Origin: Massalongia carnosa
Taxonomy: Eukaryota
DNA length: 64,000 nt
Assembly (NCBI GenBank): GCA_965645245.1
Contig: OZ287077.1
Location: 1,302,001-1,366,000 of the forward strand
Direction of reading: 5' to 3'
In this document: in pieces, positions 29,763-64,000 of the stretch
Layout: each line of letters opens with the position of its first letter
Position numbering within the stretch: position 1 is the stretch's first letter
Program-made: the position numbers and the translations under genes
Notes under the pieces: generated by a model
What the model saw: the letters and a program-made list of their open reading frames with translations, nothing else
The model's database searches: none
What the model was told of the DNA's origin: nothing

Positions 29763-32700
29763 ACGTGACAGTCAGGGGGAGGAAGAAAGACACTCTACAG
29801 CTAGCGAAAACTGTGTCAGTAGATTAGTCCGCATAAGCCAGCGAGCGGAGGCTCGTAAGCCCTTTTCGGTGGTCAGAAGGCGGCGATAATCCTTCGTTCC
29901 GGCGTCTCTGCACATGTTGCTTCGGCCGTTAACAAACCTGGGACAGCTGAGTAGCACATACTTGAGCGTCTGGCGTACCCATCCATAGCTTCACGCCGGC
30001 GAAGCGAACGTGGGAACTCGACGAGAGAAGCGATAATCCGCCAAGCCAATACGCTCAGTACGTATTTGAATGATGAGGCTGCTTTCGGATTTGCTGAAGT
30101 TCTTATGTAATCCCAGTCTCTTTATCGAAAGACCCTCAGTAAGCGCAGCGTAGGGATAACGTTGATAAGCCGCCTGATACGCGCTCCAGGTCTGTTTCCA
30201 CTGATTGTTGAAGATCTTGGCTAGCCCTCTGTCCGTCGGAGTGTTCTCTATCATGTCAGCAGGCCGGACTCGAGCAATCTGCCTCGTATACCAGTCACGC
30301 TTACGCTGAGCCGGCGTAGCGTTGAGGGCGCGCCGTCGTCTACCGCGCGAGGCAGTCAGCTTGCGCTTGATCGTCTCACAGAAAGCGGAGATGCGTTAAT
30401 CGTGTTCATGTTCTTTAAGACGTCGTCGTGCCTTCGCCTGCAAGTGAGCTAGATGTAGCTGAATTGGAGAAACGTGAGTTTCGGCTTCGATGATGATTTG
30501 CGGAGTAGCGCGAAATCCTCCGCTTATCACTCGCAGACACTCTCGCTGTATGTCACCGAGCTATTTTTCGATCCTCTGCGTGCCGTCGGGACGGCCGTAT
30601 GGTGAATGCCAGACGGTAGAGCCAAAGGTAATCGCCGGTCGCACGACGGCGCTATATACGTGTCTCGCCTTCGTAAAGCACGCTCCCCACGTAGAAGCCG
30701 TAAGCCTAGATAATGCCAAGGTCTCTGTAGCTATTTTCCCCTGTATGAACTTTAGATGAGGGTCCCATTTAAGCTTGGAGTCGATCTGAATTCCAAGCAC
30801 TCGTACCGACGGCGAAGGCGTCTTGTCTACGCCTCCTATGCACACGGCAGCCGTCATGTCGAAGCGACGATCATTTCTGGCGAGATGTAGGAGCTCGTAT
30901 TTAGCAGGCGCGAAGTGCGCTCTATGACGTCTAGCCCACAGCTCGCACATCTCATGAGCACGTTCTAAAGCTCGACAGTTACTCGCAGTCGAGGTGCCGT
31001 ATGCCAATATATTGATGTCGTCAATAAACCCCAACGCGGTGACTTTGAGTCGAAATCGCTCTAGCTCCTCCAAAATATCTGCGTTGTAAAAAATGTAGAG
31101 AATAGGCGACACTGGCGACCCCTGCGGTATACCGGCATGAACAAGGCGCATCGAAGACGTCTGACCGCCGATTGTCAGTGTGGACCTTCTTTGCTGTAAA
31201 AAGCTGCCGACCCATGCTACGATCCATTCAGGAATTTTTCTCTTGCGCAGATTGTGCAGCATTCTCTCCGCCGAGACGTGATCAAAGGCACCGGCCACAT
31301 CAATGCTCAAAAGCTTGGCCACATTGTCTGACCCAATGTTCCACACCGTGTGTACCTGTTCGGTAAGGAGTTTAAGCGCCGTTTCACAGGATCTTTGTCG
31401 TCGTCCTCCCATCTGAGACTCAGGAAGCAGATTGTGGGTCTCCGCAATAGCGGTGATGCGTTTAGTTATGATCGATTCCAAGACCTTCCTAAGCGTATTC
31501 AGAAGCTCGATAGGTCTATAGGCCTTAGCGAGAGTGTAGTTCGGCTTGTTCGGCTTCTTGATTGCAATAGTGTGAGCCTCGCGAAAGCAGAGTGGGTGAT
31601 ACCCCTGCTCTGCGCAGGCGCGAAACAGAAGGACCAACGTGGGCAGTATCGACTTGATCAGAAGCTTGAGTATTCTATTCGGTATTCCGTCGGGGCCCGG
31701 AGCAGAGTCCGGCTTACAACGCTTGATTACTGCCTCTATATCCTCGCCTGTGATAAGAGACTCCGTTTCTGCGACAGCGGGAGGGTAGCGATACGTCGTC
31801 GTGTCGCTGAGGTCTGCCGCGTTTGCATTGGGGAAGAACATGTCAGAGAGAAGAGACGTCTTTTCGTCGAATGTGGACGCAGTAACTGCTGTGCCGTCCG
31901 AAAGCGTGTGAGTCAGATCTGGCACCTTGGGAATGTCTCGCGGTAAGTGACTGCGCGTACGAGCCCATCGAGCAAGACTCCATATGCCTTCGGACGCAGA
32001 CGTCATCTCTGCTAAGGTTCTTCTGAAGCCGAGCTTCTTCTCCTTGGTGATGATCTTCTTCTTTTTATCCGCCGATTTGAGATACCTGCGCCATGTCGCC
32101 TCTGTCTTCCACCTCGTCCACTCGCTTCTTCGACGTCGAGTCTCCGCCACAGCGACAGCGCAACGCTCGTTCCAGAAGGGTTTGGAGACGGGGCAGGGAG
32201 CCGTCCAGGGAATGGTCTCATTTATCACGTCAATAATGGCGGACTATAGTCGATTCGCTAAGTCGTCTATGGCTTGCGGGGTACGCAGCCACTCCGTGAC
32301 TACAGGTAGACGAAGACTTTTCGCCAGATTTTCTTCGTCGGCTCGCTTCCATACTCTCTTGTGACGTTTCACGCTCAGCTCCACCTCTAGCGTCAGCTTG
32401 GTAGAGACGGGTATGTGATCGGACGATTGGTTCATCTCCGGACGGGTGTGACAGTGCAGCAGACTGTGTCTCAGGGAGTCGGTCATGAACACTAGGTCTA
32501 TCGTGCTCGTGGATCTGCGTGCCTCCCAAGTGACAGAGCCACTAGGTAGAGTGAGCTGCATAGACGCCGCACGAACGACGTCGAGAAGCTGGTTGGCCGC
32601 TTGATGTTGTGTAGGCCTGGAGGGGCCACTCCACAGAGGGGGATGCAGATTAAAGTCTCCCAGCAAGATGTGTTCCTCTTTATCCCGCTCATGAATCTTT

Positions 32701-34019
32701 CGTCTCACCGCCTCCACGCTTTCGAGTAGCTGGCGAAGAGAATGCGAGTCGGGTGATTGACTGTAGACGTTATATATATTGATGTATCGTGGCTTATTAC
32801 TCGCAGATATTCTTAGTCTCATTATGCACACGTCCGGCGTAAGGAAGTCCACAGCCCAAGAATTGACATCCAATCTTTTATTAATATAGAAACACGCACC
32901 TATATTCTCATTCGACATAAACGCAAGATGAAAGCCGGAATTGAACGAATTTTACGACGTGCAAACGGTGGGGTTGCGCCATGGTTCCTGAATAGCTAAG
33001 ACGTCATACTCCTCTATTCTCTTGTCCGCCAGTAGAGGGGTCATGACCCCGTTCTTGCTCTTTCTGATGTTATACTGTAATATTGAAAGAGATGTTTGTC
33101 CTGCCATTACTGGGTATTTCGGGAGACTTTGCCGCTGATTCTGTAAAGCGGCGGGCGGCCGCGCTTCGGCTTGGGCTGTGGCTGCATCTGCGAATGCGCC
33201 TTCGGCGCCGGAGGAGGCAAAAGGTAACGAAGGTGTGTAAAGGCGCTGTCAGGCCTATGAGAAGACGAGACCGGCTGTGAGTCAGGTACAACCGACACGC
33301 TGGCTCTGCGCCTAGTAGGAGATGGCGAGGAGCCTTCTCCAGGTCCCTGCGAGTATGCCCTCTTGCCATGTGTAGAGGGGAGAGCCGGAAAGCTGTTGGT
33401 GACTGTATTAATGTCGAGGTTCATAATCGTGGAGCCGTCCTGAGTAAACTCGTTCGGCTCCTCGGGCTCGGGGGTTGGCGAGCGGCTTCGATCACGCACT
33501 GCCTGATGACGTGTTGGCGCAGGTGTATGAGACGTCGGGTCGCCGGCGTTATTGCGTCGTTCTACTGTCTGACTTTGTCGAGGAAGGACAACCGCCTCCG
33601 TCTCGACATGCCACGTTGGTCGGTTTTTCCAGATGCCATTCAGGCGCTCCTTCTCCTCTTTTCGGACGGGGCAGAGGTGAGAGCACGCCAGATGATTCCC
33701 GCCGCACATGGCGCACTTGCGTCGATCCGCAGGCGCTTTGCATGCTTGCGAGCGATGTCCTTGAGCGCAGCCTGCGCATCGAAGGGCGTTCTTGCATGCG
33801 GTGCCCGTATGTCCGTACTTCTGGCAGTGAAAGCACTATTTTAGATGACAGTTCTTATCGAAGTACTCACATATTCTATGCGAGTAATCCTACAAAGACC
33901 CTCTTTAATCAGTCTCTTTGCCGTCTCTGCGGTGGCTACTTCAACTATTAGCGAGGAGTGAATCTTGGCTTCTGAAACTGCCCTTTTTGTCCATGCAATG
34001 CGGCAGATCTGCAGTCCCG

Positions 34020-38437: not shown

Positions 38438-40766
38438 TAGGGCTTTGGAATGAAACTTTCATGAAATTTTGCCTAACCGATCGGGATGAAAGTTTCACTG
38501 CGACTTTCACGAGTGAAATTTTCATGGATGTTTTGCAGGGGGGTAGGCAGGGGGGAGGGGGGGTGCGGGGAAAGCGGAAAATAGGAACGAGGACATGCCA
38601 ACTTGAAGATACTTGATTTAGCTATTAATCTTCATACAATCTCAAGTATCTCTGAGCCTGACCGCATCTCCCTCTATCGCTTGACTTGCTGGTCGTTTCA
38701 ACGAGTTTACTGTCGCTGTTTCTTGCAGAGAGATTTCTTCCTGCAACAATCTGTCTTCCATCTCACATAGATCGTCTTCTTCTATGTCAATGCCTGCGAA
38801 TTGTAGCTTCCTTTTGATTTCTTTCGGTCGGTTAAGAGTTCTTTCATTCAGATAAATAAACATCAGCTTATCCACGTTGATCGATGCCATGGAATTTCGA
38901 GTCTTGTTCATGATCAAATTCATGACCGACCAACTTCTTTCTGCCAGCACTGAATTGCCAGGAAGCATCATTACCTTTCTGGCCAGCTTGCTAAGAATCA
39001 ATGCAAAATGCTTGCAAAAATTCCAAAACAGCTCCGGTGTCATCTGATAAGTCCAACATTCTGAGTTTGCATGAAATCCATCTTCCTGATCTCGAAAAGC
39101 AAGCCATTGTCTCATGGCAACGATGCTATCTTCAGCATTCAGATATCGAGCAAAGAATCTATGCATGATCGATAAAAAAGCATGTTCTGTAGTAACTCCG
39201 ACCACCTTTATCGTACGATTTTGCGGAAGCAGACGAGATGCAACCACATGAAGCTCTGTTATTTGACTGAGATATCTAGCTTCCCAAACGACGTGAGCAA
39301 TGTGATATAGATCCGCCTCACTGTCGCTTTCTTCTTCGGCCATCGAGAACAGATGAGAGCGAATGATATTCCAGTTATTTGTTACGGTGTATAGCTTATA
39401 TCCCTCGGCTTCGGACATGTACTGAAGTTTATGAATGGGACTCAGTATCTTTTTGACCATGGGCAGTTTCTTCCAAAAGGAATAATCGTTGACGAAACTT
39501 CCCAAAGGTTTATTTCTTCCCTGATCTATGACTGGATTCTTCTGCTGAAAATAACCCAACAAGGCCTGTTGCTTATCCAGTACTGAATTTTAAAGACCAA
39601 CCGTCGTACCCCATCTGGTGAGAACGTTGAGAACCAAGGAACGACGCTGTTTGTATGCCTTCATTTGGAATTTCCATAAACTGGCTAATTCCTTATTTGA
39701 TCCGCGAAAACTGATGACGATCAACTGAGCCTTTTCTATAACATCTGTAAAATAAGGAAATTTTAAAATGTCTCCTAACAATAGCTGCAAACCATGACTA
39801 TCGCAAGGTACGAAGAAAACATGCTTCATCTCTGCACTTTTCGAAATTTCCGTCCACATGGCTTTCATTGTAGAGCACGTGTCGGTGCAGATACAATTAA
39901 CCCTTTCAAGCTGATTGTTGGTAGCATCCCTAAATCCATTTATCACCCATTCAGCTTGTACGACTGCCGTCATTTTTTCCGCTACTCCGACATCAGCTTT
40001 TAGCTGAAATCCTCCGCCAATAGAAGTGACAGATGTGGGAACGTGACAGCAGAGATTTATTACTCGCTCTTTTCGAATGTTGGCTATCTCGTCGGTAAAA
40101 AAGCTGAGATGATTGCAAGCATTCAATTTTTGATTTATTTTGAATTTAACTGTTTCATAGGCTTCATCTAACAATCGTCCAGCCATCAGTCTGGCATGAG
40201 GGGGCTTGTATCCAGGAGAAAGAGCTTGAAATGCCGCAATAACATAGGGATTCTCGAAGTGGTTGAAGGGAAGATTTGTCATATAAACAGACATCGCCGC
40301 CTCGCGATGAGCATGAGCAATTTGACTCTGGCTAAGGGGACGAATCATGGTGGTAATGGGCAGTTGGATTGATCTAGAACTGAACGAGGCATTTTCCTTC
40401 TTTGTTATCTTCTGTTTGTAGGCATCACATTGATCTAAATGTGATAGTCCTCTTACAGCATTCTTGGTAGTCTGATGACCACAATGAATGCATTGATACT
40501 GAGGTTTTTTCAATCCCATGGTAATCACGTCTTTGAAATTCTCCTCAATTAGAGAAATTTTCTTTCTTCCACCGCGTTGAGCCATGAGTATAAAATAGGA
40601 AGATACCTTTAAATATATGAGAGTGACTATCAAAATGAGGTATCGATCTATCTACAAGATATGTATATGTGCTTAGTAATAAATTTCGAAAATTTCATGC
40701 TTGGCGCGCACACGTGATGAAATTTTCGTGCGACCTTGTCAAAATTTCGAAATTTTCAGAGCCCTA
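38438..40766 (-). mobile_element. hAT DNA transposon (2.3 kb) in the G1 3' LTR
   Basis: 8-bp TSD AGCAGAGC, TIR TAGGGCT(T/C)TG(G/A)AA. Confidence 0.93.
38642..40585 (-). pseudogene. hAT transposase (~647 aa) with one in-frame TAA at 39590-39592
   Basis: BED-like zinc finger (YQCIHC..HLDQC), FFTDE, CDSH, TRWG and C-terminal SVLAERSWS motifs. Confidence 0.88.
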
Positions 40767-46624: not shown

Positions 46625-48437
46625 ACGTAATTTACCCTCATTCGGGTCAGCCCCCGATTCGGGTCAGCCACCCAATCGGGTCACCCCACCAAAAAAAAAA
46701 CCTTCGCCCTACACCAAAGAAAAATATTACATTGCGTCCACCATCCCCAAAACTAACTAAAAACACCACTATCCATCTGCATTTCCTTCCATACGGCCTT
46801 TGCGAACTTTACTTTACCATTTAAAGCATGGTACCGTTCCTTTTGTTTGGCCAATGCTTCTTCCTTCCTCTGTTTTTCCTCCGCAATCGCCTGCCCTTCA
46901 CCCACAGTCAGCACCCTCGCTTTAACACCCCCCTTTCTGGATGCTTTTTGACGTCCCTGAGCCTTTTTATCAATCAGTTCTTGATTGGTGTGTCTTAGAA
47001 TAACCCTATCAGCGACGGCATTCAAAGCAGTTGTTTTAAGCAACTCAACATGCGCGCGAAGAGATGGAGTTATACAGGATATAAGGGCATCACTGACTTC
47101 CTGGATTCGCTGCTCCGTTTGGGGGGCATCGGTGACGGTGTTTGGATAGGTAGGAGGTGTGATAGGCCTAGGCAACTTGCCTAGAACATGCCCTGGATTA
47201 AATGGGATGAGGCCTGCCCCCCGCCATGCACTCATGATGTTAGTAGCCTGTTTCCTAGCCACCTGAATAAGGCGCAAAACATCTAGCTTAGAAATAGTCA
47301 CAGCCCCGTAACGTGATTGGCTGGAAACGAGTTGTTTATAGGCCTTAGATAAAGGGCCAAAAACACCGACATCCAGGGGCTGCAATAAATGAGTTGAATG
47401 TGGTGGCAAACAAAGGGGTATGGTTTTCTCTTGGGCACAAAACTCCATAAAAGGAATGGAGACGTGACTCTCATGGCTATCTACAATTAGCATCCTATAC
47501 ATGCCTCGTTCAGGTTTTGTATGCTTATTGAACACCGTTTGCAACCAATGAAGGCCTATCTCCGCATCCGTCCAACCATTGGGACTGACCCGAACGGTAT
47601 CTGCCTTCGTCTCCATAGCATCATACCATGCAGGTTGAACTTGGGCACCTTGGAAAATGATATAAGCCGGAAGAACTGTTCCGCGGGATGATATGCACTC
47701 AATAAGAGAAACCCAGTCCCTATTTCCCGGATGCACATTGAATGGTATTGTTGTTCCTTTGATTATGACCTTCGAACTGTCTGCGATGCCCATAGCAAAG
47801 CCTTTTTCATCCATGTTGTAAGTATCTTCATCTGAAATCCCATATTTGACCAAGGTGGTCGTGTACAATTCGAACCAATCACGCAAAATTTCGGGACTAC
47901 CAGCGTCCTTTCTGGATTGATCGAGGTTTCTATTGTATTTGATTTTGAAATCGGGATGCCTTTTCAGGAACTTTTCATACCAATGACGACCCAACGGATT
48001 TTTGTCCCCTTTGGCGTTCAGGAGACTTCTGGCCATGCCTTCCAAATGTTGGATACGAGGCGGCCAACCCCATGAGGTCATCCGCTCTATCCAATCAATC
48101 AGAGCCTGTTCTTCGTGGACGGATAGCCTTTGGGCGGCTTGATAATAGTGTTTTGCGGCCCGCCTGCCTTTGAGCCGGGCCTGTAAAGTCGACTGAGGAA
48201 CTCCGTAAAGGCGCGCTATTTCCCGCTGCGAAATGCCCGGATTTATGGCTAATTCTTCGATAGCCAACTGTAATCTAGTAGCAGAGTCAAGTGTAGGCAT
48301 ATTAATGGACATTTTATCTACAATTAATAGATAAATATATAGTAGTGGTAGATAAACAGGATAGAATTTTTTTCGGTCGCTAGATTTTAATGGGGTGACC
48401 CGAATGGGGGGCTGACCCGAATGAGGGTAAATTACGT
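46625..48437 (-). mobile_element. Fot1/pogo DNA transposon P1 in the G1 5' LTR
   Basis: TA TSD, TIR ACGTAATTTACCCTCATTCGGGTCAGCCCCC with subterminal repeats. Confidence 0.95.
46753..48312 (-). CDS. Fot1/pogo transposase (519 aa, open)
   Basis: HTH N-terminus, CENP-B-like region, DDD motifs MDEKGF, IVDSH, QPLDV. Confidence 0.92.
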   Translation of the reverse strand: MSINMPTLDSATRLQLAIEELAINPGISQREIARLYGVPQSTLQARLKGRRAAKHYYQAAQRLSVHEEQALIDWIERMTSWGWPPRIQHLEGMARSLLNAKGDKNPLGRHWYEKFLKRHPDFKIKYNRNLDQSRKDAGSPEILRDWFELYTTTLVKYGISDEDTYNMDEKGFAMGIADSSKVIIKGTTIPFNVHPGNRDWVSLIECISSRGTVLPAYIIFQGAQVQPAWYDAMETKADTVRVSPNGWTDAEIGLHWLQTVFNKHTKPERGMYRMLIVDSHESHVSIPFMEFCAQEKTIPLCLPPHSTHLLQPLDVGVFGPLSKAYKQLVSSQSRYGAVTISKLDVLRLIQVARKQATNIMSAWRGAGLIPFNPGHVLGKLPRPITPPTYPNTVTDAPQTEQRIQEVSDALISCITPSLRAHVELLKTTALNAVADRVILRHTNQELIDKKAQGRQKASRKGGVKARVLTVGEGQAIAEEKQRKEEALAKQKERYHALNGKVKFAKAVWKEMQMDSGVFS

Positions 48438-48875
48438 TATACTAGATAGACAAGACGAACACAAAGAGGAAAGCATCAATTGCTGCAGAGATTTTCCATG
48501 TAATTCCCGGAACCCATTTCCTTACCTGAATGCGGTTAGCTCCCCACTAAGGCTAACGCGATACCTAAACATTTAGCGTGTCGGGAGGTATCGCTTAGCA
48601 GAGCATCTCGCGCTCACACCATGACAGAAGCGAGATAGTAAATAGATTTCTACCATTGCGCCACCTGTCCTTCCCGACCAAAAGGCACAATACTTAGTCC
48701 GCAGACCAAGCTCTATTCTAATCGTCGGCTAGTCTCTCGCTTACCTCGGCCGACTCGAGGCGTTCGCCTCTAGTCGGGGAAAGCAAAGTTCGTCTTTTCA
48801 ACTTATACACGCAAAAAATCAATCAAATAACGATGGGAATTTTTTTCTGCAAAGATCAAGCATGAAAAATGTTAT

Positions 48876-51800
48876 GATGATGATGATGATAAATTCTTAC
48901 ACCAATATGTCACCGGCCGAAGGCCGGCCCATGCGGGCGTGGTTCTATATGACTATTGTACATAAGGAAACCTTTTAAGGAATAAAAACCTAGTAACCAA
49001 AATTATCGCCTGCGGGATCCCCATGACCCCTCAGTGTACCTAAATAACGTGTATCTGTGAGGTCCTTGAAAGAAAACGGAAAAGAACGAAAGAAAAGGGG
49101 AAGAAGTCAAACCTTTCAAATGCTGTGTCGACGGGAACTATCCGTACAGCATGGTCGCTGCAATTGAAAACTGTTTTAGTATATCTGCCCGCATTAACCA
49201 TGCTGTCAGCTTTTTCAATTTTGCGGAATTTTCAATTATCGTGCGATAATTGTTAGTTTTCACTTGATTAAATAATTCATTTCTTCCGTCTATCAGCTGA
49301 CAGTGCATGATGACGTGTTTGGCCGTCTGCCTTGGCCATCCACATATGCACGCCGGTGAGTTTACATTGGGTACCCTTCGGTTGAAAAGAAAGTTGGCTA
49401 GCCCGATTTTCTCCGTGCGAATTTCCGTTGCTAGTGAACTCTCCGCTTTTGCCAAATTGCTGTGAATTTTTAATCTCTTTTTGTCAAGCGAAGCTTGTTG
49501 AGCCTCGGTGGGGAGTGGAATGCGATTTTGATAAGTCGCCCATGTTGACTTCCATATTTTCATATGATGCTCCATGAGCCGCGTATGATGTGCCCGTTGG
49601 GCCGTTCGCGCTTCTCTCAGCTCCTTGAGATATTCTGGACTGGCCTCGTACCACGGGGGCGCGGAAGGCGGTAATCTGACGGCGGCCTCTCCATTTAAAA
49701 TTGCCTTGGCCCATGTGTGTTTCAGTTCTCCGGGTGTTGGCGGCGGAGTTTTTCTTCGACCCGCTCTTTCCCGTAGCTTATTAGCTATTATCTTGCATGC
49801 GGAGTTAGCGAGTGCTTTTTGCCCCGTGATTCGTAGTCGATATCTGGCTTTAGCCTGTAGTTGATCCAAATACACATCTATTGGGGCTATGTGTGTTTCT
49901 GCCTCCAGCACCGGTATCGGGGTAGCCTTGAACGCTCCGGCGACTGTGCGTAGGCATCTGTTCTGAATGACCGCTAATTTGGACGTTATAGATTTATTTC
50001 TATTTACGTCTTTCGGGGTGTGCCAGACGATTGAACCATATGTCATGGCCGGCCGCACCACCGCCGTGTATACTTGCCTGGCCCTAGCGAACGAAGCTCC
50101 CCAGGTAGACGTGGAAATTTTTGTTAAGGCCATGCTCTGCTTGACCATCTTCTCCTGCGTTTTCCGTATGTGAGCACCCCACTTAAGTTTGGTATCTATT
50201 TGAAGACCGAGTATTCTTATATCCGCTTTTGGTTTGATTAGGCTGTTTTCTATATTAATAGTAGCCGTCATATCAAATTTCTTTGGATTTCTAGATAAAT
50301 GAATAAGCTCGTACTTAGTCGGAGCAAATAAGGATCCGTGCCGTAGAGCCCATCTTTCACATTCTCTGTGAATTCTTTCTAGCGTTCTGCAATTTTCTTG
50401 CGTGCTTTTCCCATATGCTAGTACATTGATGTCATCGACGAATCCGAGTCCGCTCGTTTTCGTGCCGGGCCTGTTACATATGTCTAGTAAATCCGCATTG
50501 TAGAACAAATACAGAATGGGAGAGATGGGTGAACCTTGCGGAATTCCGGTTCTCGCATCAAACTCGTCGGTGGTTCGTCGGTTGATCGTAAGAGTGGTCC
50601 TTCTGTTTTTCAAAAAGCATTCTATCCAGTTGGTGACCCACTGTGGAATTTTTCTTCTTCGAAGATTGTGGATCAGTCTTTGATGCGAAACCGTGTCGTA
50701 CGCGCCGGCCACGTCCATGCTGAGCAGCGTGGCAACTTTATCATTACCTTGACCCCACACTGTGTGAATCTGTTCGGTTAACAGCTCTAGTGCTGACTCG
50801 GTGGACCTTTCCCGTCTGGCTCCCATCTGGGTGCCTGGTAGTAACTCGTGCTTTTCGGCCATGTGAGTGATCTTGCTTGCCATGATGGCTTCCATCACCT
50901 TGCCTAGCGTATTCAGCAGTGCTATCGGGCGATAGGCCTTCGGCGTTTCGTAATTGTCTTTGCCCGCCTTTTTCAGCGTTATCGTATGCGCTGTTCTGAA
51001 TGCTCGCGGGTGATATCCCAGATTTACGCACGCCTGAAATAGAGGAGTTAACAACTCGGTCAGCGTCTCAGAGCACGCTTTGAGAACTCTATTGGGTATG
51101 CCATCCGGTCCAGGAGCCGTGTCGGGTTTGAGGCGTAGAATGTTCGTGAGCACCTCTTTCTTCGTTATGACTGTTGGGCACTCCGAGGCTGCCGGATAGA
51201 CCGACCCGGGTATGTCCTGTAGATCTGCCGGAGGTGGAGCAGGAAAGAAGATGCCTTTCAGCATTTCAGCCTTCTCTTCGAAGGTGTTCGCGCTGTGATT
51301 GTTGAAAGTCAGTGTTGGCATTTTTGGTGTTTCGCGCGCCTTGTGACTCTTGTCATTTGCCCATTTCGCCAGCCGCCATATGCCCTGAGATGATTCAGAC
51401 GCTTTACTGATCTCGTTTCGGAATGACAATGTTTTGGCTTTCTTGATTATCTTTTGCTTTTTGTCATTCGATTTCATGTACGTTTTCCAGTCATTGATAT
51501 TTCGAGAGGCTGTCCAAATTTTTCGAATTCTGCGTGTTTCTATCATGGCGTTGTTGCAGTCCTCGTTCCAGAATGGTTTTGCATAAGCACTAGGCCTTGC
51601 CCATGGAACGGCCGCAGATATTATTTCATGTAAGAACTTTTGTATTTTATCCGTCTGTCGATCAATCTCCTCCACTGTGTGAGGAAGTGTTATCGGGGGA
51701 GCGTTGCATTCTGCTGTTCTCAACTTTTCCATGTTCAGCAGCTTCCAGGCTCTGCGTTTTGTCTGTGTTAGCGTCTCACTTTCCAAAGAGATGCGGGAGG

Positions 51801-52245
51801 ATATCGGAATGTGATCGGATGACTGATTGAGTTCTGGTCTTGACATGCAGTGAATTAGCCTCTCTGTTAGGAATTCTGACATGAAAACCAAATCGATGGT
51901 GCTGAATGAGTTTCGGGCTTCCCATGTGACGGTTCCATTGGGCAGGGTTAGCGACAGATTGGCTTCATCGACTATATCTAGCAGCTGATCCGCGGCTGCG
52001 TGTTGCGTGGGTCTGGTGGCTCCATTCCAGAAAGGATGATGTAGATTAAAATCCCCGAGTAAGATGTGATGAGCGTCGGCGGAGAGCTGGCGTTGAGCAT
52101 CTGGGAGGGTGGAGGGGCTGTCTCTTGAAGAATATGAGGTGGGTGATGGATTATAGACGTTGTGAATGTGTATTTCCTTGTGGCTTCCGTCATTCTTGCG
52201 GGGGTGCAATATCAATGTGCATATGTCAGCGGTTGGAAATTCTAC
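48876..52245 (-). mobile_element. LINE-D: 5'-truncated LINE, open ORF2 frame (52215-49138, partial EN, RT, CCHC, no RNase H), (ATC)n tail
   Basis: 13-bp TSD TGAAAAATGTTAT at 48863-48875 and 52246-52258; GDFNLHH, FVDD, CICGW..KHVIMHC. Confidence 0.95.
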
Positions 52246-54057
52246 TGAAAAATGTTATAATAGTAGTTATACTAATAATAACCCATCTGCTCCTGAATAT
52301 CATCCTCGTCGCTGTCGTCGACATCGTCGCCTACTTCCTCTTCTATTTCAAAGGCAACGAAGTCTTTTTGTAGACCAATAGAATCACCTTCACCTATAAA
52401 TCGTAGGTTTTGATCTCCTACAGTATTCATCATAAAGATAGTTTCTGTCTCTTCCTCTTCATCATTGAATATATGAGTATCTTTTACTCCTTTCTTCGTC
52501 TTTCTTTTGGTCTCTTCCGTCTGCCAAGTAATGTCGCTCGCCTTCCAAATGGCCTCATGATCACCAATGGGATTCAACATTTCATCGGATATGCTAACTC
52601 CCTGTTTGCGAGGTCTTTAACATGTTTTATTCTGATATTTTCATTCTTTCTAGCGATAACACCTTCCGCGTGTACACTATCTCTTTTTATTCGCCATGTT
52701 CTCATGAAGTTGTTGTGTTCTCGTTTCATTTCTATCTGCTCATCTTTTGCTGTCTTTCAGCAATTGCTCGTTGCGCATCCTCCTTCGTGAGTCCTTATCC
52801 TCCGTCTGTCGAGTAATTAGGTCTTAATCACTTGCGATTAGTTGCTCTTTGTAGTAATTCATTGCTTCTTCGCTCATGATGAAGTGATAATTCGAAGTTC
52901 GTAAGCGTCGATTTGGCAACAACTTCTTTCGTATTATTCACGACTTCCTCCAACTCCTGTTCCCGGACTGGATCACTCTATTGTGTATTATCGCGAATTT
53001 TGGGTAGCCATTCAAGTAATCCTCTTTCAACATCATCGAACGTTTTAGGTTGAATTCGTGGCAATGTTGGAAGGGATAATGTTGAAAAAGAAGAAGAATT
53101 ATTCTCACTTTGCGAAGGTACAAACCTCTTTAGCTGTTCAGTGCATTTCTTCTCATTAATAGGCCACATTCTAGGATCTTTCAAAGGCAGATTGAATAGT
53201 GGATTTCTTGAATGTGTTATCTCGTATTTTGGTTAGATCTTGAGAAAATCGAGTTATTGTATACTCTACATTGAACTCCGCAATCGCTTCTTGAATGGTC
53301 ACATCATGCCAATATTTATAAGGTTGAAACACTCCTACATCAAGCGGTTGCATACAATGCGTCAAATGTGGTATCAAAGGATAAGGACGAATCTAGTTTT
53401 CATTGGCAAGGTTGATGAATTCAGGAGTAACATGACTACCGTGATTATCCATGAGCATCAACTTCCAATCACTCTCAGATCCTGCATCAGAATTTTCAAT
53501 GTAATGTTGCAGATATGTAATCTCTATTTTATCTGATATGAATCTATTTTCTGACGAAACAAGTCGAGTTCCTTTAGGCAGTTTATCTGCAAACCAATTG
53601 CTCATCATATCATGACCTTGTATGACAAGTAAAGGAGGTGGCGGATAATCACCGGCGGCGTTTATATTCTCGAAAATGGTGATAGATTTTCTATTCTCAG
53701 GACTAATAGAATAATACTCCTTTACGTCTGTTGGAACCAAAATTTCATGTCCCTTCATGCAGCCAACTCGAAAACCAGCCTCATCAAAATTGGTGATATT
53801 TCGTTTATTCTTGATATTCAGCTCTCGAAGAACCACCCGATAATCTGCGAACCATGCTTCAACGTCCTTCACTTGTCCCGCCGTATAGCGAACGACTGCT
53901 AGCGGTTTAGTCTTAATCTTATGTAAATGGTTGGATTTCCACCATGTTCTAAACCATCGCTTAGTAGGACCTTTATAATCAGCATTCTGACTTCGCTTCA
54001 GACTCTTGATCACGTTGAATATCAGTTCATGCGTCGGTTGAACACCATATGTAAGTA

Positions 54058-55838
54058 ACGTAATTGCCACCTATTCGGGCCAGCCACCTACTCGGGCCGC
54101 CCCATCAAAATCCATTGGCAACCTAATTCTTTTCCATTATCATTCATCACCACCATCCAACTATATTCAAATGAATTCAAAATTAGATGTATCAGATTCT
54201 AATACTCGTTTAGAATTAGCTGTTGAATATTTGCGGGAAAATCCTAATGTATCACAACGAGAAATGGCCCGTATTTATGACATTCCTCGATCGACGCTTC
54301 AAGCTCGTTTACGGGGGAGACAACCTGCAAAATCCTATCATCAGACTATGCAAAGACTATCCGTACAGGAGGAATAAGCACTGATTACATGGATTGAAAG
54401 AATGACTGCATGGGGCTGGCCCCCTCGAATTATATATCTTGAAGGCATGGCTAAGTATTTGATAGAGGCCAAAGGGGATCGAAAAGCGCTTGGACACCAT
54501 TGGTATAAAAACTTTTTGAACAGACATCCTGAATTCAAGTTAAAATACAATAGAAATTTGGATCAGGTCAGAAAAGACGCTAGCGACCCTGTTATCATGA
54601 AGGATTGGTTTGATTTGTACATGACCACTCGCGAGAAATACGGTGTCGCAGATGCAGATATATATAACATGGATAAAAAAGGATTTGCCATGGGCATTGC
54701 GGACAGTTCTAAGGTCAATAATAAGAGGTAATACAGCACCTTTCAATGTGCATCCAGGAAACAGGGATTGGGTCACTTTAATTGAGTGTATATCCTCTCG
54801 CGGGAGTATTCTTCCTGCTTATATCATATTTCAAGGTGCTCAGATTCAGCAAGCCTGGTATGCAGCCATTACGGATGAGAAAACAACTATTCGGGTCGGT
54901 CCCAATGGATGGGCGGACCGGGAAATAGCTTTGCATTGGTTAAAAGAAGTTTTCCATCCACAAACAAGTCGCACTCAAGGGGTTTATAGACTGCTGATTT
55001 TCGATGGGCATGACAGTCACATCACAATGGAATTCATGGAGTTCTGCGATCAAAACAAGATTGTACCCTTGTGTCTACCTCCTCATTCCACCCATCTATT
55101 GCAACCATTGGACGTGGGTATTTTTGGACCATTGAGTAAGGCCTACAAGCAATTAGTTTCCAGCAGATCTCGTTACGGGGCCGTAAACGTCTCGAAGATG
55201 GAATTTCTAAATCTAATTCAGGTCGCAAGAAAACAAGCCATGTCCACCACCAACATCCTGAGTGCCTGGCGAGGAACAGGTCTGGTTCCGTACAAACCTC
55301 AGCATGTTATAGGCAAATTACCTAGACCAGTCACTCCTCTATCTTGTCGCGACGTCAATAATGACACTCCCAAAACGACCAAACGGATTCAAGAGGCCAG
55401 CGACGTTTTGTTGACTCGTATGACTCCGTCTCTCCGCGCGCATGTTGATGTTCTAAAAATAACCGCTTTGAATGCTGTTGCTGATAGAATTATTTTACAG
55501 CATACCAATCAGGAATTGATTGCCAAACAGGATCAACGACGTCAAAAGACGTCTAGAAAAGGGCATGGAAAAGCAAAAGTGCTGACGGTGGGTAAAGAAC
55601 GGGAGTTGGTAGAGGAGAAGAGGCAAAAGGATGAAGTATTGGCCAACAAAAATGCACGATATCATGCTTTAAATGGGAAAGTGAAGTTCGCGAAGATTGC
55701 CTGGAAGGAATTGGCCATGGACAGTGATGTTTTTAGCTAGTTTTGATGTTGATAGAGGTAATGCGCTGATGGTGTTTCTCTATTTGGCGATGATGGTGAA
55801 ATTTGCGGGTGGCCGGCCCGAATAGGTGGCAATTACGT
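54058..55838 (+). mobile_element. Fot1/pogo transposon P3 (related to P1); transposase 54171-55740 with a stop at 54375 and a frameshift near 54720
   Basis: TA TSD, TIR ACGTAATTGCCACCTATTCGGGCC, protein collinear with P1. Confidence 0.94.
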
Positions 55839-57239
55839 TAACGAGCAAATGAACTCATGTATTGCTTTGATCTGATGCTTCTCCAATATCTTATTATGTC
55901 CTCCTCTCTTCTCGACTTCATTCGACGCGGCTGTTTTAAGCAAGTAAACTTTGTAAAGTGGTACGAGGAATGTCAAATATGCGAGCAGCGTATATCTTGC
56001 TTTCAAGTGGATTTTCTATTAGAAACTACTTAGCATCATTCAGACGCGTGACAGTATCATTACAATCCATGATTATGATGATAATCAATAATGAAATAGT
56101 TGATGTAGTCAAATGCGTCGTGTTGATGGAATGGAAATAAAATTGCTTTCCGCCGGACTTTGCTTTTCCCGACTAGAGGCGAACGCCTCGAGTCGGCCGA
56201 GGTAAGCGAGAGACTAGCCGACGATTACTAGAACTAGGACTCCTGCTATGTTCGCTATAGGTCCTGCCGTCCGCACCACGCTTGGTCGAACCGTTACAAT
56301 AAAAACATATCCTAAAATAGATTAGTGTCATAACCTTAGGTTGAATACACTTAATGAATAAATAAAAAAATTAAATTATTTTCAACTGATGACTGCTAGA
56401 AATGACTTGAATCTCTAAAATTATGTACTCTGATATTAACGAGATGCAGATCTGCCTTAACGAGTACCCGCAGAACCCCCTACACAGGGACGTGTTATTG
56501 ATTCGTGACAATGTGTTTTGTGACTATGTGTTTTGTAACTGTGTGTTTTGTGACTGTGTATTTATAACTATGTTTGATGAATGTATATTTTGTGACTGTA
56601 TGATTTATAAATATATGTTTTATGTCTATGTTTTGTGACCGTGCTTTCCTCGATTTTTATTTTACAGGCCGGGCCTGTTAATAGAGATATTGTTATTCCG
56701 CTCCGTAAGGGAGTTTTCTTTGAGGTGGTAGCATTCGCCTAGGTGTTATGATCTACCTAGAGACAAGTCATAGAGACACTAGGAACGAATACAATAAAGA
56801 TAAAGAAGGATAAATACAATCGACAACCAGAACCTGCTCCTATATATCCTCTACTGCGCTAGTACCCATGTGGTATAGTCGTCATGGAACCTTCTAGTAG
56901 CTGCAGGAACGAAATCGAAAGTGCCTGCGTATTCCATCTACGAATGCCCTAGGCGGTGCCAAGTACCGAGGTCGTTGTAAGGAAGCTGTCGTCGATTCTA
57001 ATCAACCGCTATTAAACCAAAATTTATCTACAAAAGAAGAAAAGAATCATTGTGCGCGACTCACGAGAAATATCTGCACCGAGTGTCGCGCTAGCCTCGC
57101 GTGCTCGCGTGCTCCCCTTCCATCTCAGCCTTATGTCAGGCTAGGACCCTGACACTATCCCCCTTCTTATTGGCGAGGTCTCCGAAGCGCTAAGTGGCAG
57201 GCGCCCTGCCAGCTAGCCTGATTCTTGATTATCATCTAT

Positions 57240-60200
57240 TTAAGTTAGATCATCTGGTGGTTTGGGTTTCTGTGGATGTTCTCGATGATATTGGAGGATT
57301 TTGTCCTTTGAATTCTTGAAGTCGGTCCATGGTTGCCAGTAAGGGTTCGCGTTCCGTTCATCCCAATTTCCAATGAAGGTTGCTTTGTACTGCACGCCGA
57401 ACTTTCTTGTTTCGCGGCAGTCTATCATTTCGAGGACTTCCCATTCTTCGTGGGCCTCCTCTTCGTCGTTTTCGGTTATGGCTATGGGCGGTCCAGGCGG
57501 TAAGACTTGTCCTGGGAATGGGTTGGAAGGTGCGAGATGTAGCTTCCACGGATGAAAGATGGGGGTAAGCCCGACGTTCTTTAACTGATCCGGGATCTCT
57601 AATTCGTATGCTTTATTGTTAATAATTCTTATTATCTTCTATGGTCCTATGTTCTTGAAGCTTAATGATCTGCTGGGTCTTTCTGAAGCAAAGTGCTTGG
57701 CGTTTACATAAACCATGCCCCCGATTTTGTATTCGGGGTGAGGTTGACGGCCTTTGTTTGCGTGTCGTGTTTGTTCTTCCTGAGCCCAGGCTAATTGATC
57801 TCGGAGCCAGGTTCGCATGGCTTCTTGCCGTTCTATGATTTTGTCAGCATGCAGTATCTCTACTTTTCCTTTTCTTTCGTATGTGCCTGGTGGTTCGATG
57901 CCACAGCGTGGGTGGAAGCCATGGTCTGCGAAGAATGGAGTCATTCCCGTTGATACATTTACATGATTGTTGGCGGCAAACTCTGCGTCTGAAAGATAAT
58001 CCATCAAGTTGTCTTGTGTGTAATTGACGTATGCTCGGAGATAATTTTTCATTACCTTGTTGGCGTTTTCGGTTTGACCGTCTGTTTCGGGATGATGTGC
58101 AGATGAGAATTTGATTCTCACCCCGTATCTTTCGCAAACTCTTTTCCATAAGTGAGCGGTTAGTTGACTACCGCGATCGTTGACTGTTGATATAGGAAAT
58201 CTGTAAGAGGAGAATAATCTCCTGGACATCGCATCCATCAGTTCATCAGTAGAGAGAGAGGTTAGTGGTTCATATAAGCGTCTTTTCGTTAAACGATCTA
58301 CTATCACTAATATGTGTTGATAGACTCTGTTTCGTCTTCGGCATTCTGGAAGGAATTCGACGAAGTCCAATGACACGTCCATCCATTTTCTATTTGGAAT
58401 GGGAAGAGGATTCAGCAGGCCTTGCTTCTTGTCGTTGTATGCTTTTGATCTTCGGCATACGGAGCAGTTAACTGCGTATCTCTTGCAGTGATCCTTCATT
58501 TCAAACCAGAAATAATTTTCTCTCATTATCTGATACATAGTTTTGTATCCCGGATGGCCCTGTAATGGTGGTTCGTGATGCTTTTTCAGTAAATGTAGCT
58601 GCAATGGCTCGTAATCTGGTACGTATAGTCTTCCTTTGACATACAGCTTGTCGTTTTCTAGTTTGAGGTCCCCCATTGCTAGCTTTATTCCTCTTTTTAT
58701 GAGGTTCAATGGGAGTTTCCTCAGTTCCTTCCTCTTTGCTACTACTATATCTTGAACTGTTTCGTCTTTTTCGTAAGCTTCTTCAATTAGTCCCTCCAAA
58801 GTCTTCGTTACTGAGCTCTCGGTCTCGTCGATCACTGATGTAGGTTCTGCGTTGGGTTCCTCCGATCTTGTTGTGTCTTCCTCGATGAATTCGCTTTGAG
58901 TATCTTGATTGTTATCGTCGTCGTCATCGTCTTTCGCTGTGTTTGCGCAGAACACGACTGCTAACGCTTTTCGTACATCGTCATCTAGTTGATGCTCTTG
59001 AAGCATCATTTGAAACTGATGTTGCTCTCTGATATCTTCGAATCCTTTCGGGAGATCTTGAGAGCGTCGAGTAAGCGTATCCGGTTTCTCTCCTTGCTTT
59101 CCCGGTCGATACATAATCTTGAAATTAAATTCGGAAAGAAATTCGGCCCATCTGGCTTGCCTTCTGTTTAGCTGCTTCGTGGTCATGAAGTGCTCTAAAT
59201 TCTTGTGATCGGTGTATACTTTAACAGGTTTATCAGGAGCAGCACTTGCAACCTCGGGGCGCCAGACTTCGAAGCTCTTTACAATAGCGAGGAGTTCCTT
59301 ATCATAAATCATATAGTTACACTCGGCAGGGGTCATCTTCTTGGAAAAATAGGCTACCGGTTTCAGTACTCCATCGTGCATTTGAGAGAGTACTCCGGCG
59401 CTGACGAAATCTGAAGAGTCAGTCTCGACCCATGTTTCCAGGGCCGGATCGTAATGTGCTAAGACGGGAGCGGTGGTGAACGCAATTTTTAAATCTTCGA
59501 AGGCCTTTTGACAATCTTCAGACCATACAAACGAATTATACTTGGTTCGTTTCTTTCCTGATTCCGTCGTTATTTGTTCGCCCTTTATTAATTCTGTTAA
59601 CGATCTCGTCCGTTGCGAAAATCTCGATATAAATCGTCGATAAAAATTCGCAAAGCCTAAAAATGCTTGCACGTCTTTTACGGAGCCTAGGGTCTCCCAT
59701 TTCAGAATTGCCTCGATTTTCTCCGAGTACATCTTTATTCCATCGGTGGTAACTATCAATCCAAGATACTTTACTTCCGTCACAGAGAATTCGCATGTGT
59801 CTATGTCCACTTGCAGTCCTTTCTCCTTCAATCGAGTTAGAACTTTTAACACTTGTTCGGAATGCTCTTCTTCCTTTTCGCTATAAATTAGGACACCGTC
59901 CAAGTACGCAGTGCAGAAGACGTCTAAGTATTCTCTGACTGTATCGTTAATGAAGCTCTGAAAGGTTCCCGGAGCGTTGCAGAGACCGAATGGCATTACC
60001 AGATATTCGAACTGACCATATCTGGTATTGAAAGCCATTAGCCATTCGTGGCCTTCCTTCATTCTCATACGATTGAAAGCGGTAATCACATCCAGTTTTG
60101 TGAACTTCTTGGCTTGTGATAGTTTTCCCAACGTTTCATTTATCAACGGTATTGGGTACCTGTTCTTGATCGTGATGGAGTTTAAGGCTCTATAATCTAC

Positions 60201-61249
60201 GCAAAATCTTAAACCACCCCCTGGTTTTCTAACTAAAAGAATGGGGGCTGCTGCGCTTGACGAACTTGGACGGATGAAGCCTTTTCCCAGATGCTCGTCG
60301 ATGTATTTTTTAACCGCTTCCAATTCTTGTTCTGATATGGGTTTATAGTTCCTTACGTACGGAGCTTCTTTTCCCGCTTCGAGATTTATCTGATGATCCT
60401 CCTTCCGGTGTTCAGGCAGTTCATCCGCCTTATGCTTCATGGAAATATCTATTACGCTGTGATAAGCTGCTGGGACTCTCTTCAACAACTCCTCTCGGGT
60501 GTATTCCGGTTTTCCCTTCATGAACTTGTCGTAATCTCCTGATGTCACTGCTCAGGTGGTATTTGCGCAGAAGGCCTTCTTTGTTTCTCGAGGAATCCAT
60601 AGATAGCCGTCGTGATCCTTCTTTCTGGCCATTCGAAAGAAGTGTTTTGCGTTGACTGGAAGAACTTCGATGTCTTCCTTAGGCTCGATCCTATTCTTAA
60701 CCTTGCTTTCCACAGCGAATTCGGTGCAAGTTATCCCTCGTGTAAGACATCCTTTTTCAAGACAATCTGATGAGTTGAACTTCATCGTTCTCTCTTTCCA
60801 ATTGATCATTGGGTTGTGCGTTTGCAGCCATCCATCCCCTAAAATGACTGCATACGCTTCTAGTTTTGCCAAATAACATAAGACTTGCTCTTCGTGATCT
60901 CCGATTTTCACGTCGATCAAGGCGGCCTTCGAGAGGAGCTGTACTACCTCTCCATTTCCCAAAGTAAGTTTCACCTTCTTATCCAATTTGAAGGTGTTCA
61001 ATTTGTGTTTACGCACAAAGGATTCGTCAATGAGTTCAGCTTCACTTCCATTATCGATAAGTAAACGGGTTTAATTCCAGCTATGCTAGTTTTAAAAACT
61101 AAATACTTGCCCTCGATTTTCTTTTCAGTATCGCGGACAGCACAAGTAGAGACCCTAATCATTTTCGTTTCAGTGTCACCGTTCCCATTTACAACCTCCT
61201 TGTTTGTAAGCCCTTGATCGCGATTTCGATCAAGGACTAGGCTTTTCCC
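57240..61249 (-). pseudogene. G2 pol (PR-RT-RH-IN-chromodomain), disrupted; RT active site reads YLDG
   Basis: LIDNGS, GLRFCVDYR, MPFGLCNAP, ETDSSD, GHPG..CSVC, DGQTE, EEWEV. Confidence 0.92.
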
Positions 61250-62752
61250 CCCTCAGATTCCGCTCCCGAATCTGTTTCTACTGTTCTCATGGTGCTCAAA
61301 TTCTTGTCCCTGTATTGAGGACAAATGGTATCGTTTCCTCGATGTCCTGATCCCCTGCATGCCCAGCATCGGCGTTGACGGGAGAGGGACTCGCGCTCGT
61401 CGTCCTTCAGCTTCTTTAGGTTTGGGTCTGGATCATACCAGGTGCCTACCCAACCGGCCGGTTTGACTATCGTTGGCATCAGTTTCGCATTCGGCCGATC
61501 ATCAGATTTCTTGGAGCTGGTTTGATTGATGGAGGATGAGGCGGACTTTCCGCCGGAGGACTGGGTTGAGGATTGTCCGCTGGAGAAGTTGCTTCGTTGG
61601 CTGGAATTCTTCGTTGCGGCTGGTTTATCGGGACGAGGAAAGTGGTGCGCCACATCTTTGCGGCGGTCTTCGATTCTTCGTGCTTCGTCAAGTAAAGGGC
61701 GGAAATCAGTAAAGACTGAACCCATAAGAGAGTTGGAGATGCTAGGCTTTAACGTTACGAGGAACTTCTCAATTCGCTCGTCAGAGTTTTGGCTTTCTGC
61801 CATAGCTTGAAGATGCGGTGATAATACTCGCTGACGCTTTCGCCCCCTTTCATGGTGACGGTGAGGAGTTCTTTCTTGGCGTCGCGACTCTGGAGGTGAA
61901 TGCCCATATAGTGCTCTATCTCTTCGAATAAAGCGTCGGCCGATACTGAGTCTCCCATATCCACTATCCAAGAGTGCATAGCCCCGAAGATCGGCGCTTC
62001 CATTTGAGACAGCGCGTAACCGACCTTTTCGTTCTCATCGGCGTAGAGGGGTGCGTCTGTCTTCAGTTTATTGCGGACGGAGTACGCCCAAGGGCTATAC
62101 TCCTCCGAGTCCTCACCTTTAAGTGGCTTGCTAGGGTTTATACCACGGGGTCGCCAATTCTGGGGGTTGGTGTTGGTGCTTCGGGTAGTAACGGTATCTT
62201 CTCGTTGATGACGTGGTGTTTCCCGTGTTTCCGCTAACTGGCGGACCAGGGAGTCTATGTCTTTCTGTAATCTCTCTTTTGCTATAGTCATTGCCTTCAA
62301 TTCGATATCTCTATGCGATAGTTCTTCTTGCGCGAGAAGGGCCTCTCGTTCGGCATCGTCTTTTTCCGTGATGAGACGTTCATGTACTTGTTTGTAACGT
62401 CTGTTGATCTTTTTGGCCTCGCCAAGCTTCTCCAGGTCGCCCTGCAAGGAGATGTATTTGTTGAATAGGGTCTTGTCGTATTCGAGCGCTCTCGCGAGGA
62501 AGTCATACCATCGGGGTCCTTCTTTCTCGTCTCGCAAGATGCTCTGCAATTCCTTCAAATTGTGTGCTGCAACGTGGGACGGATGTTCCGCGGCATCCTT
62601 CTCGTAATATGGATGATCGGAGACATCGATCTTCTGAAAAAACTTCTTTCCTTTTTCACGTCCTGCTCTTGGGGTTTTTCCCACGTCCCCTCCGTGGTTT
62701 CTTTAATCTGTTCGTTCTGAGGTAATTCGGAGTCTTCAAACGTTCCCGGCAT
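61237..62752 (-). pseudogene. G2 gag, frameshifted
   Basis: Coiled-coil region, MKGGESVSEYYHR, knuckle CWACRGSGHRGNDTIC. Confidence 0.85.
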
Positions 62753-63611
62753 GCTGCTATCCGAGCGAGACGAATGATGGGAGACGGAACGAGCGCGGGT
62801 GTTAGTTAAATGCTGGGCCGGTCTGGGCCTCTGCGGGAGGGGCTACGGCCTTTCTCGCCATCATGGGCGTTTTTGAGCTCATGACTGGATTCTGACAATG
62901 GGAAAGCTTGCTTCCCTGATTCTAAAAGTTCTGGAAGTTCTGGAATTTGGATCGGTTTGGATTCGCACAAACGATCAGTCTGGAAAGTTACTGGAACGGG
63001 TTTTCACCCTATCTGGAAGAAAGTTGCTGGAACGGGACCTCGTCCCTACTGGAAGTTCTGGAAGAAAGAATACTAATAGGTAGATAAATTGTGTAAGGAA
63101 GCTGTCGTCGATTCTAATCAACCGCTATTAAACCAAAATTTATCTACAAAAGAAGAAAAGAATCATTGTGCGCGACTCGCTAGAAATATCTGCACCGAGT
63201 GTCGCGATAGCCTCGTGTGCTCGCGTGCTCCCCTTCCATCTCAGCCTTATGTCAGGCTAGGACCCTGACAGTCGTGCCGTGTAGAATCGTGACACCAAGT
63301 ATCTATACGCGTTCTATTGATTTCAGCTGATAACTGCATAGGGAGACTTGAACTCTTAGGAGCTAGAACGCGTGTCGACTGTGCCCGGGTGGGGGATGAT
63401 GCGGCTCCTTTAATTCATATCTTCTTCCAGCTGATAACTGCAAAAAGGGACTTGAACCCTTATAAGTATAGTGCAGGGACGCGCGCATGCGACCCGCCTG
63501 CGGTAAGCCTTCGAATCTTCTTCCGTACATACGTCTGCGAAGTGTATAAAAGTGTTAAATTAGCGTCTTCATGTTAAGGACCAATAGTGTAGAATGAGGA
63601 AGACCGATAGT

Positions 63612-64000
63612 GACGATAATCAATCAAACGAGTTTGAACAGTTTGTTAAGAATACAAAGCAGATTGTTGCAAAATCAAATTTTATCGACTTTGAATTAAA
63701 GTTATTCGCAAAAGAAGAAATGATAAATTTTTACACAAAGCAATCTCTCGCAAAAGAATAAGATCTACTTATTCGAAGACGTTAGAATTCACAAAAGAGA
63801 ACACAGAACGAATTATATTCGAAAAACAAGAAAAAGAAAAAAGAAAAAGCACAACAATTGCATGAGAATCTGACGAATAAAACGTAATGTTATACACATC
63901 AAGAGAATTGTTACGCGAAAAAATAAAAGAATTCGACAAAAGCAAGTGAAAAAACTTAACAAACAAGATGTCACGATTCATCCGCATCCACTCAAGGCCA
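63612..64000 (+). pseudogene. Heavily mutated C-terminal fragment of a P2-type pogo transposase
   Basis: NTKQIVAKSNFIDFEL and MRI*RIKRNVIHIKRIVTRKNKRIR align by eye with P2 NTKEVVAKSTLTNFEL and MRTWRIKRDSVHAEGVIARKNENIR. Confidence 0.75.

Follow-up and report, generated by a model that had tools for sequence, protein, structure and literature searches.

In Neurospora and other Pezizomycotina, RIP depends on RID and DIM-2, and the order of sequence contexts given for Neurospora in the passages of PMC5496416 used here is CpA>CpT>CpG>CpC. RIP has also been reported in the lichen fungi Cladonia and Xanthoria, in passages that contain neither a mention of CpC nor a context spectrum (PMC12542154, PMC13486527). 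CpT-biased RIP-like signatures were found in Magnaporthe oryzae, Botrytis cinerea and Sclerotinia sclerotiorum (PMC4352252). In Zymoseptoria tritici, Dim2 was associated with mitotic C-to-T mutation at CA, with CC methylated at a lower level (3–8%) and CT almost unmethylated (PMC8016269, in the passages used). The chlorovirus methyltransferases M.CviPII and M.CviQIX methylate the first C of CC(D), according to the relevant part of PMC9636781. For the detection of RIP, the default cut-offs are TpA/ApT ≥ 0.89 and (CpA+TpG)/(ApC+GpT) ≤ 1.03 in the sections of PMC2621366 used here, where the letters of the second formula differ; in the same sections, RIPCAL is described as defining a CpC index, which is omitted by default, and as colouring CpC changes in alignments. 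No report of CpC-dominant RIP was found in the passages of the literature searched, which also includes PMC5737583, PMC13535494, PMC13297926, PMC5555474, PMC7882544, PMC7979813 and 10.1101/344036; the tables and supplements of Clutterbuck 2011 and PMC12543289 may bear on novelty.

The window, i.e., the whole 64-kb stretch of DNA analysed here, consists of nested transposons of the LINE, Ty3, hAT, and pogo types. Scanning of 29 window ORFs revealed no host gene, and the named relatives of the window transposases belong to filamentous ascomycetes. The DNA was found in one lichen metagenome and in sequencing runs labelled as four organisms, which together with these relatives points to a lichen-associated ascomycete as host, probably the lichen-forming fungus. 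In an Atlas search, the matches were confined to generic Ty3 clusters, with no taxon attached. The locus under study lies at the end of the window:

63606..63981, no strand: stretch without CC or GG (dinucleotide counts, shuffles)
63609..63968, plus strand: pogo/DDE_1 transposase relic, C-terminal coding part, family P0121–P0136 (tblastn; contigs from sequencing runs)
63871..63873, plus strand: TGA replacing a conserved Trp codon, GG to GA, CpC context (tblastn alignment)
63969..64000, plus strand: start of an LTR-like end cutting the relic; bases 1–11 match the LTR end at 63284–63294 exactly in reverse complement

A preliminary description of the sequence had reported that 63606–63981 lacks CC and GG, and counting confirmed this: the 376 bp (29% G+C) contain 0 CC and 0 GG, where the base counts predict 7.2 + 8.9 = 16, so that the depletion stands and the earlier estimate of a dozen at ~27% GC was too low. 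The reported abundance of CG and CA/TG was also found, with CG at 15 against 8.0 expected, CA at 30 against 24.9 and TG at 14 against 13.3 (CA+TG 44 against 38). Besides, GC was observed 9 times (8.0 expected), TC 17 times (11.9) and GA 37 times (27.8), with TA low at 22 (41.2) and CT at 7 (11.9). Base shuffles of the segment (n = 100,000) gave a mean CC+GG count of 15.8 and a minimum of 3. The runner-up CC/GG-free run within the window was 192 bp, and among 80 related loci (299,747 bases) a longer run than that of the relic was found in L028 alone, the next being 189 bp. These counts, shuffles and run lengths rule out chance or low complexity as the cause of the void, with the look-elsewhere caution that a 350-bp run without the dinucleotide GC is present at 9250–9600, in AT-rich LINE tails. 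Contigs from sequencing runs X2 and X5 showed 0 differences from the segment, which rules out an assembly or sequencing artefact. The RIP indices of the void were 0.68 (TpA/ApT) and 1.14 ((CpA+TpG)/(ApC+GpT)), both negative by the default cut-offs, as the preliminary description had anticipated in stating that standard indices would miss it.

The relic showed similarity to the C-terminal parts of P0121–P0136 (tblastn, best E 1e-12), proteins that contain Pfam PF03184, and thereby belongs to the pogo/DDE_1 transposases; both this identity and the TGA at the aligned Trp codon (63871) had been correctly recognised earlier. Family similarity begins at 63609 in runs X1, X2, and X5, and a loose end was found in run X1 just before 63969. 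Since the family match begins at 63609 and the LTR-like end at 63969, the relic corresponds to 63609–63968 and the void is the relic. Two frameshifts were found, one near 63697 and the other near 63838 in an A-rich tract. The 119 codons of the relic include no Pro, Gly, or Trp, where all eight relatives keep 2 Pro, 1–7 Gly, and 1–2 Trp codons. All seven Gln and all three His codons, which are targets of CpA-type change, are intact. The depth at 63621–63695 was ~8–15x the single-locus depth, a rough sign that the family has several copies. A close intact parent was absent among 17 longer proteins (24–61% identity, in short pieces), and the 80 metagenome loci gave 0 blastn hits and one weak tblastx hit.

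Differences between the window and copies from the sequencing runs were tallied over all 730 bp aligned, of which the relic is a part. The copies in run X1 showed 40 A>G or T>C changes relative to the window against 8 in the reverse direction, with 16 transversions; the corresponding numbers were 31 against 6 for run X2 and 23 against 0 for run X5. At most of the differing positions, A or T in the window corresponds to G or C in the other copies, i.e., the directional C:G to T:A transitions of canonical RIP are present in a repeat that is multi-copy by depth. When three less mutated relatives were compared with the relic, changed sites amounted to 6/6 for CpC, 6/12 for CpT, 2/6 for CpG, and 0/6 for CpA (Fisher p 0.005) in a sample of three loose ends hand-aligned over 67 relic positions, few in number, mismatch-rich by selection and from sister subfamilies rather than the direct parent. 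The outcomes in this sample were CC>TC, GG>GA, or GG>AA, with 0 CC>CT; it was always the first C that changed. Counter-evidence comes from 14 transitions at 63570–63930, which among the matches listed comprise 6 CpA, 4 CpT, 3 CpG, and 1 CpC. The contig of run X1 across the same junctions showed 16 differences, and among the matches listed (9) five fall in the relic and none of these restores a CC or GG. This suggests a void older than the divergence of the window and run X1 alleles, with subsequent changes affecting the contexts still present. Run X6 yielded no aligned contig, which does not prove that the locus is absent there.

Outside the window, a related pattern was found in L028, a pogo element of the relic's family on a metagenome contig, with 7 CC and 23 GG against 52 and 63 expected. 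Compared with L023 (87% alike), L028 was changed at 54/84 CpC, 15/36 CpG, 22/192 CpA, and 16/209 CpT sites (contexts other than CpC pooled, 53/437). The polarity was CC>TC in 48 cases and CC>CT in 9, with 27 hits per strand, and 49/63 CpC sites were changed before position 1800 against 5/20 after it. A CpC-first process, with CpG rather than CpT as second context, is thus present in at least one other organism. As a control, the same script returned a classical CpA pattern for L016 against L001 (CpA 89/205, CpC 23/158, CC>CT 57, CC>TC 7). L016 belongs to the same pogo family on another contig, and its classical hypermutation involves CpA and CpG. Within L028:1–1800, loss of CC/GG and of CG was near-complete, with a 511-base CC/GG-free run and with CCA and CCT hit most.

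Like Neurospora RIP, the process seen in the relic changed C:G to T:A densely and directionally, affected both strands of a transposon present in several copies, ended at the borders of the element and had its target set by the 3′ neighbour. It differs in that the small sample from the relic gives the order CpC>CpT>CpG>CpA, in that TpA is low and the default indices are negative, and in that most young repeats are untouched. Because the preference for CpA over CpC that defines canonical RIP is reversed here (CpC 6/6, CpA 0/6; Gln and His codons intact), the void was not classified as canonical RIP, though it is RIP-like; the indices lie outside the 0.89 and 1.03 cut-offs. The CpT-biased signatures described in PMC4352252 are similar in showing a species-specific shift of target, two signatures per genome and CpT as a context; that survey of 10 genomes reports only CpA, CpT, and CpG signatures, with 0 occurrences of "CpC" in the main text. 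With Zymoseptoria Dim2, as described in the passages of PMC8016269 used, the relic would share methyltransferase-linked C-to-T change in repeats, and the presence or absence of this change among isolates offers a model for on/off behaviour. The Zymoseptoria mutations occur at CA, which is not the main context in the relic, and a CpA bias was found here only weakly, in young pogo copies. The chlorovirus enzymes have the first C of CC(D) as their target, and CCC is the least depleted CC triplet in the window. They belong to viral restriction-modification, are not repeat-directed, and no such gene was seen here, so that they are a precedent for the chemistry only. Decay of CpG methylation of the Masc2/DNMT5 type would deplete CpG, which is in excess in the void and has synonymous log odds of −0.32 to +0.93 across the 13 ORF sets of the window.

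The reading that we favour, with a probability of about 0.6, is that an old or episodic RIP-like C-to-T process with a preference for CpC acted here beside a weak present-day CpA bias, and that the void is its saturated footprint. Such a process would act on both strands of repeated DNA, probably directed at the repeats themselves, with the first C of CpC as its preferred target (CC to TC, GG to GA), CpT as its second, and CpA and CpG largely spared. The pogo relic would have been struck in the past until its CC and GG were exhausted. A milder form of the same pressure, filtered by purifying selection, may have stripped synonymous CpC from most of the host's transposon families. A RID- or DIM-2-type C5 cytosine methyltransferase, its preference for the 3′ neighbour shifted, is the putative agent and would mark the C that is then deaminated or directly converted. 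CpC-to-TpC change creates stops at Trp codons only, so that elements would survive mild rounds, which would explain a synonymous footprint. In the host's young copies, where changes are few and CpA is weakly favoured, this process is not the dominant one, so that it may be episodic, may have waned or may have been confined to few copies.

Could the void instead be the end state of ordinary RIP, or of context-free decay of methylated cytosine, in which CC is lost twice as fast from a Lys/Glu-rich C-terminal tract that was CC-poor originally? Changes were found in all four contexts, the neighbouring repeat X (see below) was changed CpA-first, and in Monilinia classical RIP is accompanied by CpC-to-TpT double changes (PMC8959702, in the passages used). 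However, CG and GC likewise hold two mutable bases and are not depleted, CA+TG is above and TA far below expectation, every Gln and His codon of the relic is intact, the relatives have six CC/GG within the 67 aligned positions, and classical RIP yields CC>CT, as in L016. We consider this explanation quite improbable. Both hot contexts of the relic, CpC and CpT, are dipyrimidines and the host is lichen-associated, which would fit an APOBEC-like deaminase or damage by ultraviolet light in a lichen exposed to the sun. Ultraviolet light and APOBEC3G mainly change the 3′ C of TC or CC. In the void, TC and GA are above expectation; in L028, CC>TC prevails over CC>CT; at synonymous sites in the window, C following C or T is undepleted; and light damage would not end at element borders. 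Damage or deamination of this kind is accordingly highly improbable as the cause.

The CpC-preferring process that we favour would leave its milder trace at the synonymous sites of the other elements, of which the following were considered (CpC and CpT values are log odds):

652..6350, plus strand: LINE-A, AT-rich and recently active; pol synonymous CpC −1.35, CpT −0.69; copies under purifying selection
30561..32951, minus strand: LINE-D pol; ~53% G+C in the larger ORF; synonymous CpC −1.72
38642..40651, minus strand: hAT transposase; synonymous CpC −2.05
46753..48441, minus strand: P1, young intact pogo; the sole ORF set without CpC depletion (+0.35)
49138..52254, minus strand: LINE-E pol; open frame of 1038 codons; synonymous CpC −1.25
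52275..56091, minus strand: P3, a longer member of the relic's pogo family; DNA identity to the relic 62%; synonymous CpC −1.58
56976..63270, minus strand: young Ty3 retrotransposon; terminal repeats 98% alike; pol synonymous CpC −1.22; copies elsewhere not hypermutated

In 13 ORF sets from nine families, C at the third codon position was kept before C in 242/910 cases and before other bases in 1660/3139; on the opposite strand of the same ORF sets the numbers were 127/557 before C and 1371/3226 elsewhere. The fraction of C kept at synonymous sites was 0.53 after C, 0.49 after T, and 0.39 after A, i.e., there was no loss of C after C. Since the sense and antisense strands are depleted and C after C is not, it is the first C of CpC that is targeted on either strand, a pattern that favours mutation over codon choice. 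Among sense-strand triplets, CCA was the most depleted and CCC the least; the fractions kept at synonymous sites were 0.38 and 0.23 for CCC against 0.14 for CCA. P2, the pogo that splits P3 (54056–55763), carries T at 55/232 of the CpC sites of P1, and P1 carries T at 17/182 of those of P2 (p 0.0001), with the other contexts even. The CpC-depleted families retain their Pro, Gly, and Trp codons, P3 its Pro and Gly codons among them, and the differences among LINE-A copies lie mostly at third positions, from which it follows that these families were active while under CpC pressure.

CpC log odds of −0.66 or lower were found in 12/13 window ORF sets and in 7/67 control loci (control median −0.17), the controls being pogo ORFs from 67 of the 80 metagenome loci, with no LINEs or Ty3 and with near-identical copies among them; the other 13 loci, L028 included, lack a transposase frame of 150 codons and were excluded. 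That the controls are pogo alone, that seven of them are depleted and that ORFs outside the pogo frame at the control loci show a mild CpC dip (0.478 against 0.519) would be compatible with an intrinsic codon usage of retroelement families, the relic being a lone hypermutated copy unrelated to it. This is scarcely probable, as the depletion is strand-symmetric, affects the first C only and is common to LINE, Ty3, hAT, and pogo families. The main alternative to the favoured reading is a CpC-to-TpC bias of the whole genome that is not repeat-directed (replication, repair, or constitutive CC methylation), with the relic merely old. Depletion on both strands in 12 of the 13 ORF sets, including active families under purifying selection, is what such a bias would produce. 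On the other hand, P1 is undepleted in the same window, recent changes are not CpC-rich, the non-coding repeat X beside the relic retains long runs of G and C, and the changes in L028 fall off within the element like a bounded event; we therefore regard a genome-wide bias as unlikely. P1 may be a recent arrival in the host, as it is unlike all other families here in lacking CpC depletion.

The AT-rich LINE cluster (326–36264) contains about nine nested or truncated copies (34% G+C in pol, 94–99% alike, FIDD at the RT site) and three diverged subfamily copies, with CpC and CpT depleted, CpG and CpA kept, and signs of purifying selection. The copy at 652–6350 has a TAG between endonuclease and RT, which three other copies lack. 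The AT-rich LINE-A copies were also considered as hypermutated relics, and this was ruled out since their differences are symmetric, mostly at third positions and include many transversions.

Young copies were compared as proteins of close copies (91–98% identity for P1), presumably from the same assembly, with at most 15 members per cluster and amino-acid changes only; open frames are favoured in such sets, which should help CpC-type copies rather than hide them. C-to-T changes amounted to 6/891 at CpA and 2/1253 at CpC in the P1 family, to 6/302 and 3/361 in the P2 family, and to 13/985 and 6/1544 in four further pogo clusters. Per 1000 sites, the values for CpC, CpA, CpT, and CpG were 20, 18, 17, and 14 in Ty3 and 12, 11, 9, and 6 in LINE-A copies, the latter with 81 transversions. 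In LINE-A, P1, and Ty3, transversions about equal or exceed C-to-T changes, so that the transition excess that canonical RIP leaves in most copies is absent. Pooling the young copies of P1, P2, and Ty3 gave 43/3481 for CpC and 107/8638 for other contexts (odds ratio 1.0). A lack of CC enrichment genome-wide is the outcome that the preliminary description had named as speaking against its proposal, and it is what these copies show. The 28 residue-aligned stops in window elements were 9 of CpA type, 5 of CpG type, and 2 of CpC type, with 12 unclassified.

The relic is adjoined by a copy of repeat X, which is split by the LTR element:

56368..56743, minus strand: repeat X copy, left half; against the copy at 24934–25298, CpA 9/58, CpC 7/32, CpG 3/22, CpT 3/37
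56739..56743, plus strand: left target-site copy, CTAGG (sequence comparison)
63295..63299, plus strand: right target-site copy, CCAAG; differences in CpA and CpT context if the original was CCAGG
63300..63612, minus strand: repeat X copy, right half, adjoining the relic; CpA 13/35, CpC 4/37; runs of G and C kept

Over the whole split copy, C-to-T changes were found at 22/93 CpA, 11/69 CpC, 6/64 CpG, and 4/69 CpT sites, a spectrum that agrees only loosely with canonical RIP. With this spectrum, the young copies and CpT as a strong second context in the relic, the CC preference claimed earlier is not supported as a present-day genome-wide process; what stands is that the void arose by C-to-T change in one direction, with the first C of CpC as target, and is bounded by the multi-copy relic. 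Of the four side examples offered in support, three (four changes) were in CpC context. The fourth (CTCCGA>CTCTGA) was shown to be in CpG context, and the diverged target-site pair, which had been taken to fit a CC process, differs at CpA- and CpT-context sites; neither was accepted as CpC evidence. Repeat X (63300–63612, 56368–56743, 24555–25500) is a high-copy and apparently non-coding repeat with short internal sub-repeats, and its summed depth in run X2 reached ~300x that of a single locus. The LTR with nested young Ty3 that interrupts it (56744–63294) has a second 11-base end of the same type at 63969 in opposite orientation. Sequencing runs labelled as four organisms contain 30–67% of the sampled words of 56000–64000, which may reflect a young Ty3 in common, closely related organisms, or mixed samples under different labels.

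More broadly, and tentatively, some lichen-associated and soil fungi may possess a repeat-directed mutator with a cytosine methyltransferase that recognises CC by its first C; alternately active and silent in the course of evolution, it would operate alongside ordinary CpA RIP and reshape living transposon families. If so, LINE-A, LINE-D, hAT, and Ty3, stripped of synonymous CpC, would be a record of host defence in living elements that default RIP indices do not see. As RIP surveys use CpA-based indices, a CpC-preferring variant would be recorded as "no RIP", and the extent of genome defence in these fungi would be underestimated. Target choice and C-to-T conversion by RID and DIM-2 could be tested directly with a natural enzyme whose neighbour preference is the opposite, and with the synonymous-site test such pressure could be dated and mapped even in transposon families that are still active. 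The contribution of the window lies in the synonymous-site signal in active families, its contrast with young copies, and L028.

Besides L028, P0132 from another contig was compared with P0126 over 44 sites of Pro and Gly, of which 12 carry a CpC-diagnostic change, with 0 in the reverse direction. P0132 is a 578-residue transposase with an open frame and many Pro-to-Ser and Gly-to-Glu/Asp replacements, as CpC-type change predicts.
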